Assembly: GCA_963742735.1 (NCBI GenBank)
Contig: CAVUMN010000002.1
Location: forward strand, 96,001 to 160,000
Source: an uncultured Actinomycetes bacterium
GTDB taxonomy: Bacteria > Actinomycetota > UBA4738 > JBBDTT01
Direction: 5' to 3'
DNA length: 64,000 nucleotides
Position numbers and translations under genes: made by a program. Below the pieces are notes generated by a model. It made no database searches and was not told the origin of the DNA. It saw only the letters and a list, made by a program, of their open reading frames with translations. This document shows, piece by piece, positions 10,032 to 36,514 of this stretch (positions are counted from its first letter, which is position 1; each line of letters starts with the position of its first letter).

Positions 10032-10434
10032 CCTGCGCGCGCGCCTGGACGAGCTCCTGGCCGCCGCCCGCGAGGCCCGCGACGGCGCCTACGCCCCGTA
10101 CAGCAACTACACGGTCGGCGCCGCGCTGCTGGCCGGCGATCGGATCGTGACGGGCGCGAACGTCGAGAACGCCTCGTACTCGGTGGCGATCTGCGCCGAG
10201 CGGGTGGCGGCGGGCCACGCGGTGGCCCACGGGCTGCGCGACCTGCAGGCCGTGGCGGTGGTCGGGCCCGGCGAGGACCCGATCACGCCGTGCGGCGTCT
10301 GCCGGCAGTTCCTGAACGAGTTCAACCCGAACCTGATCGTGGTCTCCGAGGGGTCCTCCGGCGAGCGCTTCGCCGAGCCGCTGTCCGCACTGCTGCCCGA
10401 GGCGTTCGGCCCGGCCAACCTCGAGGACACGTGA
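10012..10434 (+). CDS. cdd: Cytidine deaminase
   Basis: AYAPYS, GANVENASY, CAERVA, PCGVCRQ. Confidence 0.95.
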   Translation: MDSAPPDLRARLDELLAAAREARDGAYAPYSNYTVGAALLAGDRIVTGANVENASYSVAICAERVAAGHAVAHGLRDLQAVAVVGPGEDPITPCGVCRQFLNEFNPNLIVVSEGSSGERFAEPLSALLPEAFGPANLEDT

Positions 10435-32111: not shown

Positions 32112-32168
32112 TTGACGCCATGCCGCCGGAAGGCGTATCGTGGGGCCTGATGAGAACGATTCTCATTC
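32112..32168 (+). promoter_or_regulatory. SigA-type promoter plus Zur box
   Basis: TTGACG (32112-17), N18, TATCGT (32136-41); ATGAGAA-CGA-TTCTCAT IR (32150-32166). Confidence 0.82.
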
Positions 32169-33025
32169 TTGCTCTTGCACCGCTCCTCGTGCTGGGAGCC
32201 TGTACGCGCGATCCCCGGGACGACAGCGGCGGGCGGCTCCAGGTGGTGGCCAGCTTCTATCCGCTCGCCGAGGCGGCACGGCAGGTCGGCGGCGAGTTCG
32301 TCGAGGTGCGCGACCTGACTCCGCCGGGCGTCGAGCCACACGACCTGGAGCTCACCACCGACCAAGTTGATGCATTGCTGGATGCCGACCTCGTCCTCAC
32401 GATCGAGGGACTCCAACCTGCCGTCGACGACGCACTGGAAGAGGCCGAGGTGCATGCTCTCCGGTTCGTTCCGTCCGGCGCGGATTCCCTTCCGTCAGGC
32501 GAGGATCCCCACTTCTGGCTCGACCCGTACGAGTGGTCGACGGTTGGCCATGGAATTGCCCCAGAGCTCGCCGAGCTCGACCCCGATCACGCCCGGGACT
32601 TTGATCGCGAGGCGCACCTCTACCGGCGCGATCTCGAGGCCCTCGACCAGGAGTACATGAAGGTTCTCGCAGACTGTGATCGCGACCTACTGGTGACCGC
32701 CCACGACGCGTTCGGTCGCCTGGCCGCCCGCTACGGCCTCCGCGTGGAGTCGATCGCCGGGATCTCTCCGGAAGCCGAGCCGAGCCCGGCTCGCCTGGAC
32801 GAGCTGACCGAGCTGGTCGAGCGAGAAGGCGTGACGACCATCCTCACCGAGGAGCTCGTGTCGCCCGAGGTGGCCGAGACCCTCGCCCGCGAGACCGGCG
32901 TCAAGACGGCCGTGCTGAACCCCATCGAGTCCCTCACCGACGAGCAGCGCGCGGCCGGGGAGGACTACCTGTCGCTGATGGAGACCAACCTGGACGCGCT
33001 GTCGGAGGCCCTCGGATGCCGCTGA
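32150..33025 (+). CDS. znuA: Zinc ABC transporter substrate-binding lipoprotein
   Basis: LGAC lipobox, VVASFYPL, EPHDLE, DPHFWLDP, HDAFG. Confidence 0.9.
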   Translation: MRTILILALAPLLVLGACTRDPRDDSGGRLQVVASFYPLAEAARQVGGEFVEVRDLTPPGVEPHDLELTTDQVDALLDADLVLTIEGLQPAVDDALEEAEVHALRFVPSGADSLPSGEDPHFWLDPYEWSTVGHGIAPELAELDPDHARDFDREAHLYRRDLEALDQEYMKVLADCDRDLLVTAHDAFGRLAARYGLRVESIAGISPEAEPSPARLDELTELVEREGVTTILTEELVSPEVAETLARETGVKTAVLNPIESLTDEQRAAGEDYLSLMETNLDALSEALGCR

Positions 33026-33771
33026 CCGGCCCCCTCCTCGAGGCGCGCGGGGTCACGTTCGGCTACGGGCCGGAGCCGGTCCTCGAGGCCGTCGACGTCG
33101 CCGTCCACCCCGGCGAGTACGTCGCGCTCGTCGGGCCGAACGGCTCGGGGAAGTCGACGCTGCTCAAGCTCCTCCTCGGCCTGCTCCAGCCGCAGGCGGG
33201 CACGGTCCATCTCTTCGGCGAGCCGCCGGAGCGCTTCCGCGACCGCCGGCGCCTGGGCTACGTCCCTCAGCGTCCCGTCCTGGCCCGCGAGCTCCCGGCC
33301 ACCGTGGCCGAGGTGGTCGCCACCGGCCGCCTCTCCGCCCGCGGCTGGCTCGGCCGGTTCGGGCCGGCCGACCGGGAAGCCGTCGACGGAGCCTTGCTGG
33401 CCGTCGCGCTCGCCGACGAGCGGAACCGGCTGGTCGGCTCGCTCTCCGGGGGAGAGCAGCAGCGCGCGTTCATCGCCCGCGCCCTGGCCAGCGGCCCGGA
33501 CCTCCTGGTCCTCGACGAGCCCATCGCCGGTGTCGACGCGGCCTCGCAGCGCCGGTTCCGCGACACCCTTCGCTCGCTGGTGCGCGACCGGGGCACCGCG
33601 GTCCTGCTCGTCTCCCACGAGCTGGGCGCGGTGGGGGAGGACCTCGACCGCGTGGTCGTCCTCAAGCGGAGCGTCATCTTCGACGGCTCGCCCCAGGAGC
33701 TCGTCGAGTCGGGCGTGCACCTCGGCGTCCACCGCGAGGACCTTCCGCTCTGGCTGGAGGGCCTGCGGTGA
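33016..33771 (+). CDS. znuC: Zinc ABC transporter ATPase
   Basis: GPNGSGKST, GYVPQ, LSGGEQQR, LDEP. Confidence 0.9.
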   Translation: MPLTGPLLEARGVTFGYGPEPVLEAVDVAVHPGEYVALVGPNGSGKSTLLKLLLGLLQPQAGTVHLFGEPPERFRDRRRLGYVPQRPVLARELPATVAEVVATGRLSARGWLGRFGPADREAVDGALLAVALADERNRLVGSLSGGEQQRAFIARALASGPDLLVLDEPIAGVDAASQRRFRDTLRSLVRDRGTAVLLVSHELGAVGEDLDRVVVLKRSVIFDGSPQELVESGVHLGVHREDLPLWLEGLR

Positions 33772-34646
33772 TCGGCCTCGTCTATCCCTTCGAGCGCGAG
33801 TACATGCAGCTCGCCCTGGCTGCGGGCCTGGTGGTCGGAGTCAGCGCGCCACTCATCGGGGCGTTCCTGGTCCAGAAGCGCATGTCGCTCATCGGCGACG
33901 GACTGGGCCACGTGGCGTTCGCGGGGGTGGCCGGCGGACTGCTCCTCGACGTCTGGCCGGTGTGGACCGCCCTGCTGTTCACCGTCGTCGCCGCGCTCGC
34001 CATCGAACGCCTTCGCGCCCGGGGGACCGCGAGCGGCGACCTGGCCCTGGCCCTGTTCTTCTACGGCGGGATCGCGGCCGGGGTCGTCCTGGCCGGCCGG
34101 GCCGGCGCACTGGACGCGAACCTCCTGCGCTACCTCTTCGGCCAGCTCATCACCGTGACCGGCGCCGACGTCCTCGCCGTCGCCGTGCTCGGCGGCGTGA
34201 TCGTGGCCACGATCGCCGTCGTGGGCCGGGCGCTGTTCGCCACCGTCATCGACGAGGACTGGGCCCGCGTCGCCGGCCTGCCGGTCGGCGCCCTGAACGC
34301 CCTCCTGGCCGTCCTCACCGCGATCACCGTGGTCGCGGCCATGCGGGTGGTGGGGGTGCTCCTGGTCGCCGCGTTGCTCGTGCTGCCCGTGGCCAGCGGC
34401 CAGATCCTGGCCCGCTCGTTCCGGGGGGTGTTGGGATGGTCGACGCTGGTCGGTGCGGGCTCGGTCGTCGCCGGTCTGGTTGCCGCGCGACTGTGGTCGC
34501 TCGCCCCCGGCGGGACGATCGTCCTGGTGGCCGCGGGGGTCTTCGCCGTCGCCGCCGGCATCGTCCGCTTCCGCCGCGGCCGTCTGCCCGAGGTCGTCCA
34601 CAGCGTCTCGGGCCACGGCGAGCCCCACGAGCATCCCCACAACTGA
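33768..34646 (+). CDS. znuB: Zinc ABC transporter permease
   Basis: GDGLGHVAFAG, YLFG, VVGVLLV; His-rich tail. Confidence 0.9.
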   Translation: MIGLVYPFEREYMQLALAAGLVVGVSAPLIGAFLVQKRMSLIGDGLGHVAFAGVAGGLLLDVWPVWTALLFTVVAALAIERLRARGTASGDLALALFFYGGIAAGVVLAGRAGALDANLLRYLFGQLITVTGADVLAVAVLGGVIVATIAVVGRALFATVIDEDWARVAGLPVGALNALLAVLTAITVVAAMRVVGVLLVAALLVLPVASGQILARSFRGVLGWSTLVGAGSVVAGLVAARLWSLAPGGTIVLVAAGVFAVAAGIVRFRRGRLPEVVHSVSGHGEPHEHPHN

Positions 34647-34649
34647 GCG

Positions 34650-35084
34650 ATGCGTGACGACCTGCATCTCACGGCCGCGACCCGCCTGAAGGCGACGCAG
34701 CAGCGCTATACGGAGGGACGGCGGGCCCTCGTTGACATCCTGGCCGCCGCGGCCCGGCCGGTCCCCGTCGACGACATCCTGGAGCAGGACCGCTCGTTGC
34801 CCCAGTCGAGCGTCTACCGCAACCTCGCCGTCCTGGAGCAGGCCCGAGTGGTCCGCCGCGTCCACGGCTCGGACGAGTTCGCCCGATACGAGCTGGCCGA
34901 GGACCTCTCCGAGCACCACCACCACCTGGTGTGCTCGAACTGCGGCAAGGTCGAGGACTTCGAGGCCCCCCCCGGCCTCGAACGGACGGTCCGCAGGGCG
35001 ATGGACGCCGCCGAGCTGAGCGAGGGCTTCTCCGCCCACGGCCACCGCCTGGACCTCGTCGGCCTCTGCCGCGACTGCGCGTGA
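34650..35084 (+). CDS. zur: Fur-family regulator, probably Zur
   Basis: SSVYRNL, HHHHLVCSNCG, GLCRDC; last gene of znu operon. Confidence 0.85.
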   Translation: MRDDLHLTAATRLKATQQRYTEGRRALVDILAAAARPVPVDDILEQDRSLPQSSVYRNLAVLEQARVVRRVHGSDEFARYELAEDLSEHHHHLVCSNCGKVEDFEAPPGLERTVRRAMDAAELSEGFSAHGHRLDLVGLCRDCA

Positions 35085-35112
35085 GCGCGGCTGGTACGTT
35101 GTAGGGGCGACG

Positions 35113-35166
35113 CCTCCGGCAGCCGGTCGGGGGACGGAGGGGACCACGGCAGCCGGTCGCGGTTCC
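35113..35166 (+). promoter_or_regulatory. Tandem anticodon-like stem-loops in glyQS leader (candidate cis-regulatory RNA)
   Basis: CGGCAGCCGGTCG repeated at 35117-35129 and 35147-35159, each at the apex of a hairpin. Confidence 0.6.
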
Positions 35167-35185
35167 AGGAAGGGGTGAAATCGAT

Positions 35186-36514
35186 ATGGCCGACACCATG
35201 GAGGCCATCACCGCCCTCGCCAAACGGCGGGGGCTCATCTTTCCATCGAGCGAGATCTACGGCGGGCTGCGCTCGTCGTGGGACTACGGCCCCCTCGGGG
35301 TCGAGCTCAAGCGCAACGTCAAGAACGCGTGGTGGCGGGCGATGGTCCAGGACCGTGCCGACATCGTCGGCCTCGACGCCGCGATCATCATGAAGCCCGA
35401 CGTGTGGGTGGCCAGCGGCCACGTCGACTCGTTCTCCGATCCGCTCGTCGAGTGCGGCACCTGTCACAAGCGGTGGCGCCAGGATCACCTCACCCCCAAC
35501 GAGGCGGGCGAGCTCGTCTGCCCCGACGACGGCGGCAAGCTGTCCGACCCCCGCCACTTCAACCTGATGTTCAAGACGTTCCTGGGCCCGGTCGACGACG
35601 AGGCGCACATCGCCTACCTGCGCCCAGAGACCGCGCAGGGGATCTTCGTCGACTTCGTCACCGTCCAGGCCGCGAGCCGCAAGAAGGTCCCGTTCGGGAT
35701 CGCCCAGATCGGCAAGAGCTTCCGCAACGAGATCACCCCGGGGAACTTCGTCTACCGCACCCGCGAGTTCGAGCAGATGGAGATGGAGTTCTTCGTCGAG
35801 CCCGGCACCGACGAGACCTGGCACGAGTACTGGATCGAGCAGCGCATGGCCTGGTACACGAACCTCGGCATCGACCCGACCCACCTCCGCGTCCGCGAGC
35901 ACGAGCAGGACGAGCTCAGTCACTACTCCAAGCGAACCGTCGACATCGAGTACGCGTTCCCGTTCACCGACTGGGGCGAGCTCGAGGGGATCGCCAACCG
36001 CACGGACTTCGACCTGAAGGCTCACGAGAAGGCCTCCGGCGAGGACCTCACCTACTACGACCAGGAGAACGACCGTCGGTACCACCCCTACGTCATCGAG
36101 CCGGCGGCCGGCGCCGACCGCGCCACCCTCGCGTTCATGCTGGATGCCTACACGGTCGAGGACACCACCACCGCGAGCGGCAAGACCGAGAAGCGAACGG
36201 TCATGCGGTTGCACAGGGACCTCGCGCCGATGAAGGTCGCGGTGCTTCCGCTCAGCCGACACGAGGACCTCGTCCCCGAGGCCAAGCAGGTGTTCGACCT
36301 GGTGAAGCGGCACTGGATGGCCGACTACGACGACTCAGGCTCGATCGGGCGCCGGTATCGCCGGCAGGACGAGGTGGGGACGCCCTACGCGGTGACCATC
36401 GACTTCGACACGGCAACCGACCGCGCGGTCACCGTTCGCGACCGCGACACCATGGCCCAGGACCGGGTCGCGGTCGACCAGCTGACCGGCTACCTGAAGG
36501 AGCGGTTGGACTGA
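35186..36514 (+). CDS. glyQS: Glycine--tRNA ligase, alpha2 type
   Basis: [54 protein letters not shown]. Confidence 0.96.

Follow-up and report, generated by a model that had tools for sequence, protein, structure and literature searches.

To our knowledge, protein-mediated feedback of an aminoacyl-tRNA synthetase on its own bacterial mRNA is a textbook theme with essentially one case, thrS of Escherichia coli, and the general view of Gram-positive bacteria is that they depend on T-boxes. Here we examine the leader of glyS, the gene for the dimeric (alpha2) glycyl-tRNA synthetase (GlyRS), in a stretch of 64,000 nucleotides from the genome of an uncultured Actinomycetes bacterium (the window), together with the glyS leaders of its relatives. 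The window leader carries two hairpins with the glycine anticodon GCC in their loops; a single hairpin with a related loop, on a covarying stem, precedes glyS in nearly all same-order relatives, and hairpins with this type of loop on unrelated stems occur in other lineages of the phylum. We think it probable that they are anticodon-arm mimics.

According to the papers cited here, the thrS operator offers the dimeric enzyme two anticodon-like domains, one for each subunit, and its control obeys the tRNA identity rules; through anticodon mimics, E. coli ThrRS regulates its own mRNA, as do AspRS and several further synthetases in yeast (PMC9976931). The yeast synthetases (AspRS; HisRS and others) bind their own mRNA in a feedback set by tRNA levels (PMC6542539, PMC9976931). 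For glycine, C35 and C36 are in the identity set of E. coli, Thermus, yeast and an archaeon (PMC9976931). Human alpha2 GlyRS (GARS) binds the apical hairpin of the poliovirus internal ribosome entry site (IRES), which has a 6-nt loop with an invariant CC and a free first base, and GARS no longer binds when this triplet is mutated (PMC3384309). The same group notes that the GlyRS dimer, with its two anticodon sites, could accommodate two RNA sites, and a second, weaker site has been proposed (PMC9778869).

Conserved hairpins in front of glyS

In the window genome (3.08 Mb in 5 contigs, 71% GC), the leader lies between a Fur-family gene and glyS (Table 1). The product of glyS is of the alpha2 type, as first annotated: it combines Pfam tRNA-synt_2b (the class II core) with HGTP_anticodon and matches the NCBIfam models NF003211 glycine--tRNA ligase (E = 4.5e-194) and TIGR00389 glyS_dimeric. 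The initial annotation had noticed the 13-mer CGGCAGCCGGTCG twice in the leader, at 35117-35129 and 35147-35159, each copy capping a hairpin with a lower stem of its own, one A.C mismatch in all, and the second hairpin placed directly before the Shine-Dalgarno (SD) sequence. All of this is borne out, with exactly two perfect copies and a minimum free energy (MFE) fold that agrees. Hairpin 1 has a core stem of 35113-35120 with 35126-35133 and the loop AGCCG at 35121-35125 (GCC at 35122-35124); hairpin 2 contains the mismatch (35146/35160) and the loop AGCCG at 35151-35155 (GCC at 35152-35154). Allowing one mismatch adds one more copy of the 13-mer in the 64 kb, where about 0.99 matches are expected, and 7 of 100 shuffled controls had at least three matches.

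When the 30-nt units 35113-35142 and 35143-35172 are compared, 19/30 positions are identical, 13 of these being the 13-mer. Outside it the units agree at 6/17 positions, and both lower stems pair nonetheless. Because a GGAGG relic lies between the hairpins and the relatives have the order hairpin-GGGAAAGGAGG, the comparison suggests that a unit of about 30 nt, hairpin plus SD, was duplicated in the window leader. A soil-metagenome contig spanning 35104-35188 retains both hairpins and differs at two positions (35164 T>C and 35167 A>G), the first of which turns the G.U pair with 35142 into G-C, a minor point that fits the hairpin model.

glyS was detected in 36 of 41 related genomes, and 28 of the 29 same-order loci, with glyS 66-77% identical, share one leader. 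Its parts are, in order, a TAnnnT box, CACGCCAGC, a 7-bp stem, the loop N-[G/U]CC-R, the second arm of the stem, GGGAAAGGAG and ATG; GGGA(A/G)AGGAG follows directly after the hairpin, then the start codon. The flank CACGCCAGCGG, columns 3-11 in alignments A1 and A3, is invariant throughout the order, and so are both loop C's in the two alignments. Among the 22 rows from published genomes, 98.1% of stem cells are paired and 8 cells are changed on both sides. None of 500 column shuffles attains the covariation score or the paired fraction, a control that overstates significance because the rows are kin; slid registers, a control free of that weakness, reach at most 61% pairing. With six rows from unpublished genomes added (28 in all), 98.5% of cells are paired, 9 double changes are seen and again 0/500 shuffles do as well, and there are 8 sense-strand G-U cells versus 3 unpaired, A.C-type cells. 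A cross-family alignment of hairpins that had been selected for pairing was kept out of these counts as circular.

The pair that closes the loop is itself kept by compensatory change (CG 15, GC 6 and UG 1 in the 22 rows; another pair is CG 18, GC 2 and UG 2), so the free RNA has a 5-nt loop. For this reason we drop the proposal of the initial annotation that the closing pair opens to give a 7-nt loop. Its suggestion to look among relatives for invariant NCC loops on covarying stems gave a positive answer, and a wider one than expected. The extended -10 element that it read at 35092-35100 (TGGTACGTT, starting 8 nt past the TGA of the Fur-family gene at 35082-35084) has a counterpart in the TAnnnT box, which lies 6-9 nt ahead of the conserved ACGCC in 24/24 same-order leaders inspected, whereas a promoter scan found no sigma-70-type site (-35/-10 consensus) in the glyS leader. 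From this putative promoter, transcription would start near 35106-35109.

The sole same-order exception (L028, in genome G034) has a GC-rich leader with CGCG-type palindromes and a possible GCGC-GACC-GCGC tetraloop hairpin, its loop again with CC.

To which gene does the element belong? A covariance model of the order-wide leader (CACGCCAGC, the 7-bp stem, N[G/U]CCR and GGGAAAGGAG), named R1, matches 90 of 101 same-order genomes at E <=0.01, with a single match in 87. The 11 genomes left include five without detectable glyS (incomplete assemblies), G034 and the window genome. In all 55 genomes that have both coordinates, compared by eye, the R1 match is on the glyS strand and no more than 50 nt ahead of the gene; 27 of these genomes are outside the R1 training set. 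A Fur-like gene within 1.5 kb before glyS was found in 0/29 loci of same-order relatives. Given the match next to glyS in 55/55 genomes and the absence of Fur-like genes from all 29 loci, we assign the element to glyS, with which it travels, and not to zur.

A second, weaker R1 match occurs in three same-order genomes (42.7, 31.2 and 30.3 bits), with sites at G502:C29:9376-9414 and 10377-10416, G486:C150:1306-1339 and G497:C27:4435-4467; in G502 the two R1 matches share a contig, at a distance of 1 kb from each other. An R1 search gave no second copy of the element in the window genome. The best R1 matches in the window and its own genome, inside an Era-like GTPase gene (window 10712) and in a Pro/Ala-rich frame (contig 1), were set aside as chance.

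Beyond the order, alpha2 glyS was present in 72 of 121 genomes of a phylum sample, and upstream regions were examined in 57 published ones, with further sampling of two more orders and 80 metagenome contigs. Four other groups carry an NCC-loop hairpin before glyS on unrelated stems. The leader of G094 has CCGCGC-AGCCA-GCGCGG. In the order of G166, 21/21 loci show by eye stems of 8-9 bp, closed by A-U, with the loop [A/G/C/U]GCC[A/G], and RNAalifold, run on 19 rows, finds the hairpin again, with 3 compensatory pairs. Many N-GCC-A hairpins, and one AUCCA, are found in the order of G140, where two loci of genus g157 (L233 and L235) have two tandem GCC hairpins with the loops AGCCA and CGCCA; judging by these sequences, they arose by a duplication independent of, and parallel to, that of the window.

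The fourth form, CCGAC-[A/C]GCCA-GCCGG-A(U)GGAG, was seen at 43 loci, mostly metagenomic (L259-L338 and L065; for example L274, L283, L294 and L305). It is found on AT-rich to GC-rich contigs as an invariant 16-mer with a conserved A.C stem mismatch, and its 3' arm abuts the SD. As it resembles the order-wide flank CACGCCAGCGG, the two forms may be homologous.

Some leaders with the CCGAC form contain more. In the AT-rich loci L278, L282 and L286-L288, CCGAC-AGCCA-GCCGG lies about 50-55 nt upstream and is accompanied by CCGGCUC...CGCCGGAUGAGG segments that could pair with the 3' arm of the hairpin or beside the SD, so that these leaders look like a switch with alternative folds. L271, L275, L276, L279-L285 and L290-L293 have, ahead of the CCGAC..GCCGG element, a further hairpin whose stems covary (CUUGC/GCAAG, GUAAC/GUUGC, GCAAC/GUUGC) and whose small loops often contain CC (GACCA, ACCA, GACC, GCCC, AGUCC), though not always (GAAC, GUGA, ACAC); it may be a second site. 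Two pattern searches were of little use. With the pattern CCGACNNCCAGCCGGA in 401 genomes of the phylum, match counts were similar to those of a reversed control, which makes the search uninformative, and L339-L368 were not used. A pattern scan of contigs gave at least 120 stretches, and among the 80 loci listed 43 were chance matches (no stem, outside glyS); the scan indicates presence and no complete distribution.

How far does the loop triplet itself stand out? Hairpins were detected blind to the triplet: the last 100 nt upstream of glyS were searched for perfect hairpins with at least 5 pairs and loops of 5 or 7 nt, and loci retrieved by a motif pattern were left out. GCC is then the loop centre in 54 of 195 leaders, which are kin and not independent trials, and the next triplets are CCG (11), TCC (10) and GGC (10); in published loci the figure is 48/187, with 10 for the next triplet. 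Under a looser pentaloop definition, CC occupies loop positions 3-4 in 138/187, the next dinucleotide reaching 52. The stronger point is the recurrence of the triplet on unrelated stems in several orders.

Variants of the loop have UCC (L004, L020, L097, L109, L141, L249, L291) or CCC (L259, L260, L303, L065, L069). GCC, UCC and CCC are the three glycine anticodons among the tRNA genes of the window genome; read as codons, they would specify Ala, Ser and Pro. That the first base of the triplet varies in this way, being G and sometimes U or C, fits anticodon mimicry better than a codon. In a loose and noisy census, the base 3' of the triplet is a purine in 123 of 144 loops (A 71, G 52). The same census speaks against reading 'GCCA' as a mimic of the tRNA 3'-CCA end, as the base after CC is G in 52/144 loops, both window loops included.

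Possible ligands and alternative readings

We favour, with some reserve, the reading that the glyS leader hairpins are anticodon-arm mimics bound by GlyRS, in a translational feedback like that of thrS. The loop N-[G>U,C]-C-C-R would present a glycine anticodon, with C35 and C36 followed by a purine like that at position 37, and free dimeric GlyRS would bind it via its C-terminal anticodon-binding domain. GlyRS is proposed as the ligand because the fixed loop bases coincide with the identity bases C35 and C36. Since the hairpin abuts the SD, the bound dimer of about 100 kDa would hinder binding of the 30S subunit and so lower translation of its own mRNA; uncharged tRNA-Gly would compete for GlyRS and relieve the block. 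In the window, duplication of the unit of about 30 nt would have given two mimics 30 nt apart, which could engage both subunits of one dimer. This is the thrS-like architecture put forward by the initial annotation. It occurs in the window and in L233 and L235. A single hairpin is the rule within the order (28 of 29 relatives), and the two-hairpin form is confined to particular lineages and not the conserved state.

Several observations weigh against GlyRS binding. Most loops have A and not U33 just before the triplet (A 82, G 26, C 24 and U 12 of 144 loops, in the loose and noisy census), the loop is a pentaloop closed by a covarying pair and not a 7-nt loop, and the leader stems are unlike the anticodon stems of tRNA-Gly here (CCACC-UUGCCAA-GGUGG). 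The anticodon-arm mimicry proposed at the outset is supported in part: the conserved NCC, the covarying stems and the purine after the triplet fit it, the size of the loop and the base that should resemble U33 do not, and the mimic is a loose one. The invariant flank CACGCCAGCGG goes beyond a simple model of loop recognition, as does the invariant 16-mer of the CCGAC form with its A.C mismatch; either could be the mark of some other ligand, instead of GlyRS or besides it, or of an alternative fold.

The window leader, too, is not an easy member of the family. Its hairpin 2 region scores 6.3 bits with R1 (E = 9.8), and the window genome (G000) has no match at E <=0.01. Because of this low score, membership rests on position, loop and gene: the leader shares with the order-wide form ACGCC, the C-AGCCG-G loop context, adjacency to the SD, and glyS, and it is probably a diverged, duplicated version of that form. 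No close relative with a two-hairpin leader was found in the genomes or metagenomes searched; the only same-genus genome (61% complete) gave no glyS match, and the best metagenome relatives are 71-72% identical. The fold energy of the leader is ordinary (MFE -35.8 kcal/mol, z = 0.33, with 116 of 200 shuffles folding at least as well), so that the case rests on the comparison with relatives.

Distribution is the last point of this kind. Many Actinomycetota have a leaderless glyS or a leader without the hairpin, so control through the glyS leader must be dispensable, and no anticodon-like leader was found at the other three class IIa synthetase genes of the window genome. The large-genome families sampled have no such hairpin in the glyS leader. 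Leaderless-looking glyS genes of several families (L031, L032, L034, L036, L037, L040, L042, L043, L055, L057, L058, L062) have a TAnnnT box about 7-9 nt before the ATG or GTG, which makes a 5'-leader operator impossible there.

Among the alternatives, binding of another factor survives best, and we still consider it unlikely. The hairpin would then be a glyS-specific RNA element bound by a tRNA- or RNA-binding protein, an RNase or a ribosomal protein, with NCC as the site of that factor, or it would stabilise the 5' end of the mRNA. The invariance of CACGCCAGCGG and of the mismatched 16-mer suggests recognition beyond the loop triplet, the pentaloop lacks A38-like as well as U33-like features, and in the order-wide form no more than about 10 nt separate the hairpin from the inferred 5' end, which is typical of a stabilising stem-loop. 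A general stabiliser or RNase site would, however, be expected before other genes too, and the element is found as one copy, at glyS, in 55/55 genomes. The pattern of change also speaks for GlyRS: the stems drift, exactly the two identity bases of this enzyme are fixed, and the base equivalent to the wobble position varies among glycine anticodons.

A protein-free mechanism is improbable in our view. Here the NCC of the loop would pair with GGN, either in cis, within the SD or the start of the coding region, or in trans, on an rRNA or a small RNA, and a pseudoknot or kissing complex would tune initiation. Partners are at hand, as G-rich sequence lies directly downstream (GGGAAAGGAG in the relatives, AGGAAGGGG in the window), a conserved hairpin occupies the first 50 nt of the glyS frame, and the CCGGC/GCCGG repeats of L278, L282 and L286-L288 could pair alternatively with the 3' arm of the hairpin. 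Yet a stable pairing would need more than the two or three loop bases that are fixed; the second codon, a possible source of GGC, is not conserved (GCC, ACC, CCC, TCC, GCG); and the first loop base varies with no visible matching change downstream, though no systematic comparison was made.

For the window alone, it is very improbable that repeat and hairpins have no function and merely came about when part of the GC-rich spacer was recently duplicated, or that they terminate the zur-like gene. Such an origin would suit the ordinary fold energy, the failure of R1 to recognise the leader and the abundance of GC-rich hairpins, since the genome has 10815 perfect pentaloop hairpins of at least 7 bp, 384 of them (3.6%) with GCC at the loop centre. 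Against it, the lower stems still pair in units that have diverged outside the 13-mer, loop and position match the conserved element of the relatives, and the soil contig changed G.U to G-C while retaining both hairpins. A zur terminator was rejected on its own account: no intrinsic terminator is called at 35085-35185, no T-run follows either hairpin, and the relatives have no zur upstream.

The slightest chance of all falls to a DNA operator, where a dimeric transcription factor would bind the inverted repeat and repress glyS. The repeat does lie at about +10 to +30 of the inferred promoter, a common position for repressors. However, sense-strand G-U pairs (8 cells against 3 of the A.C type), a conserved 5-bp spacer and arms that differ wholly between lineages, the reverse of what protein operators show, argue for RNA; arm changes are also compensatory, and no regulator gene travels with glyS.

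A broader picture is tempting, and we hold it to be evenly balanced between right and wrong. Actinomycetota with alpha2 GlyRS would possess an undescribed, phylum-wide family of GlyRS-sensing glyS leaders with at least three architectures and at least two independent duplications into a two-site operator, converging on thrS. The architectures would be the CACGCCAGC-hairpin, the long stems closed by A-U, and the invariant CCGAC-NGCCA-GCCGG; their sole common feature is the NCC pentaloop, the identity set of GlyRS, set against the SD. The duplicated elements, in the window genome and in genus g157, would make two-site operators that exploit the avidity of the dimer.

Features of the window and neighbouring genes

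Upstream of the leader, znuA, an ABC ATPase gene and an ABC-3 permease gene (Pfam ZnuA, ABC_tran, ABC-3) occupy 32120-34646, and the zur-like gene closes this cluster (32120-35084).

Table 1. Features in and around the glyS leader, in window coordinates
Feature	Position	Strand	Basis or remark
Fur-family (zur-like) regulator gene, context only	34650..35084	+	Pfam FUR
Spacer between Fur-family gene and glyS	35085-35185	+	101 nt
Extended -10-like box TGGTACGTT, putative glyS promoter	35092..35100	+	sequence; TAnnnT box shared with relatives
ACGCC, sole part of the order-wide invariant 5' flank CACGCCAGCGG kept here	35110..35114	+	alignments A1, A3
Hairpin 1, pairs 35111-35120/35126-35136	35111..35136	+	MFE and centroid fold; first 13-mer copy
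GGAGG, SD-like relic between hairpins	35136..35140	+	unit comparison within leader
Hairpin 2, pairs 35140-35150/35156-35166	35140..35166	+	MFE and centroid fold; second 13-mer copy
Purine-rich Shine-Dalgarno region AGGAAGGGGTG	35167..35177	+	directly 3' of hairpin 2; 9 nt before ATG at 35186
glyS, dimeric (alpha2) glycine--tRNA ligase, 442 aa	35186..36514	+	Pfam, NCBIfam
GC-rich hairpin in first 50 nt of glyS frame, codons 10-17	35213..35234	+	terminator-like flag; then TCATCTTTCC

The hairpin inside the glyS frame covers the codons for S/A-L-A-K-R-R-G. A counterpart folds in most of 20 same-order glyS genes, and synonymous changes (Leu CTC/CTG, Arg CGG/CGC) often preserve the pairing. It might be part of the structure of the initiation region or a by-product of the conserved SLAKRRG peptide.

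As for the other class IIa synthetases of the window genome, the starts of thrS (L369) and hisS (L370) on contig 3 overlap the upstream stop codon (GCTGATG and CACGTGAGC), which suggests translational coupling. L371, likely proS and the third gene with an HGTP domain, starts 8 nt after a TAACCT box and looks leaderless; a 422-aa frame first taken for this gene was matched by no NCBIfam model.

Comparison with known systems

The initial annotation knew of no such element at glyS, and none was found in Rfam 15 or in the literature searched. Rfam 15 gave only noise for the window region (E <=10) and for the loci of 26 relatives (E <=1; 14 of the first motif and 12 with CCGAC..GCCGG). Full-text searches returned T-box work on glyQS/glyS of Firmicutes and eukaryotic or viral mimics, and no bacterial GlyRS operator. 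Two surveys of RNA motifs (PMC5737381, PMC2864571) do not mention glyS, glycyl, 'tRNA synthetase' or aminoacyl in their main texts; their motif lists sit in the supplements. The element has probably been missed so far because the well-studied actinobacteria sampled seem to lack it, having leaderless genes or different leaders.

If the broader picture of a phylum-wide family is right, this would be only the second well-defined class of bacterial synthetase operator after thrS. Anticodon mimicry would have been invented again for another class IIa enzyme, with a mimic whose conserved bases are the identity set, and the number of mimics would be changeable by duplication. The glyS leader hairpin is a candidate for a new Rfam RNA family, and an RNA of 20-40 nt would be a compact tool for studying how alpha2 GlyRS reads C35 and C36, a question relevant to the interaction of GARS with picornavirus IRESs.

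Finally, we would like to place the leader beside the systems that resemble it. The T-box of glyQS or glyS in Firmicutes is likewise a leader RNA on a glycyl-tRNA synthetase gene that responds to the status of tRNA-Gly. In a T-box, however, the codon GGC is displayed, and a Stem I, the T-box sequence and a terminator or sequestrator take up 150-200 nt or more, whereas the glyS leader here has GCC, UCC or CCC, in the sense of the anticodon and not GGN, in about 45-80 nt; with no Rfam match in addition, a T-box riboswitch was rejected for this locus. The mRNA mimics of yeast synthetases are similar in that an anticodon-like element in the mRNA is recognised by the very synthetase which that mRNA encodes; they differ in being eukaryotic, in using other regions of the mRNA and in showing no homology. 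The hairpin of poliovirus IRES domain V is closer with respect to the enzyme: it too involves alpha2 GlyRS and a loop of non-canonical size with NCC, in which CC is invariant and the first base free. Its loop has 6 nt with ACC, against 5 nt and mostly GCC in the glyS leader, and the viral element works in a eukaryotic host, activates translation and is not part of the enzyme's own mRNA.

The closest parallel is thrS of E. coli. In both cases the gene encodes a class IIa homodimeric synthetase and one or more leader stem-loops with the cognate anticodon stand directly upstream of the SD, and the two-hairpin form of the window shares the two-domain logic. The two are not homologous in sequence or structure, the enzyme and the anticodon are others, and the host belongs to the Actinomycetota; most glyS carriers have a single hairpin, and a pentaloop takes the place of the 7-nt anticodon-like loop. 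Binding and repression of the thrS type are predicted here from sequence. By analogy, then, the glyS leader would follow the principle of thrS, and what would be new is the enzyme, a non-homologous RNA that mostly consists of one hairpin, and the phylum in which it is found.

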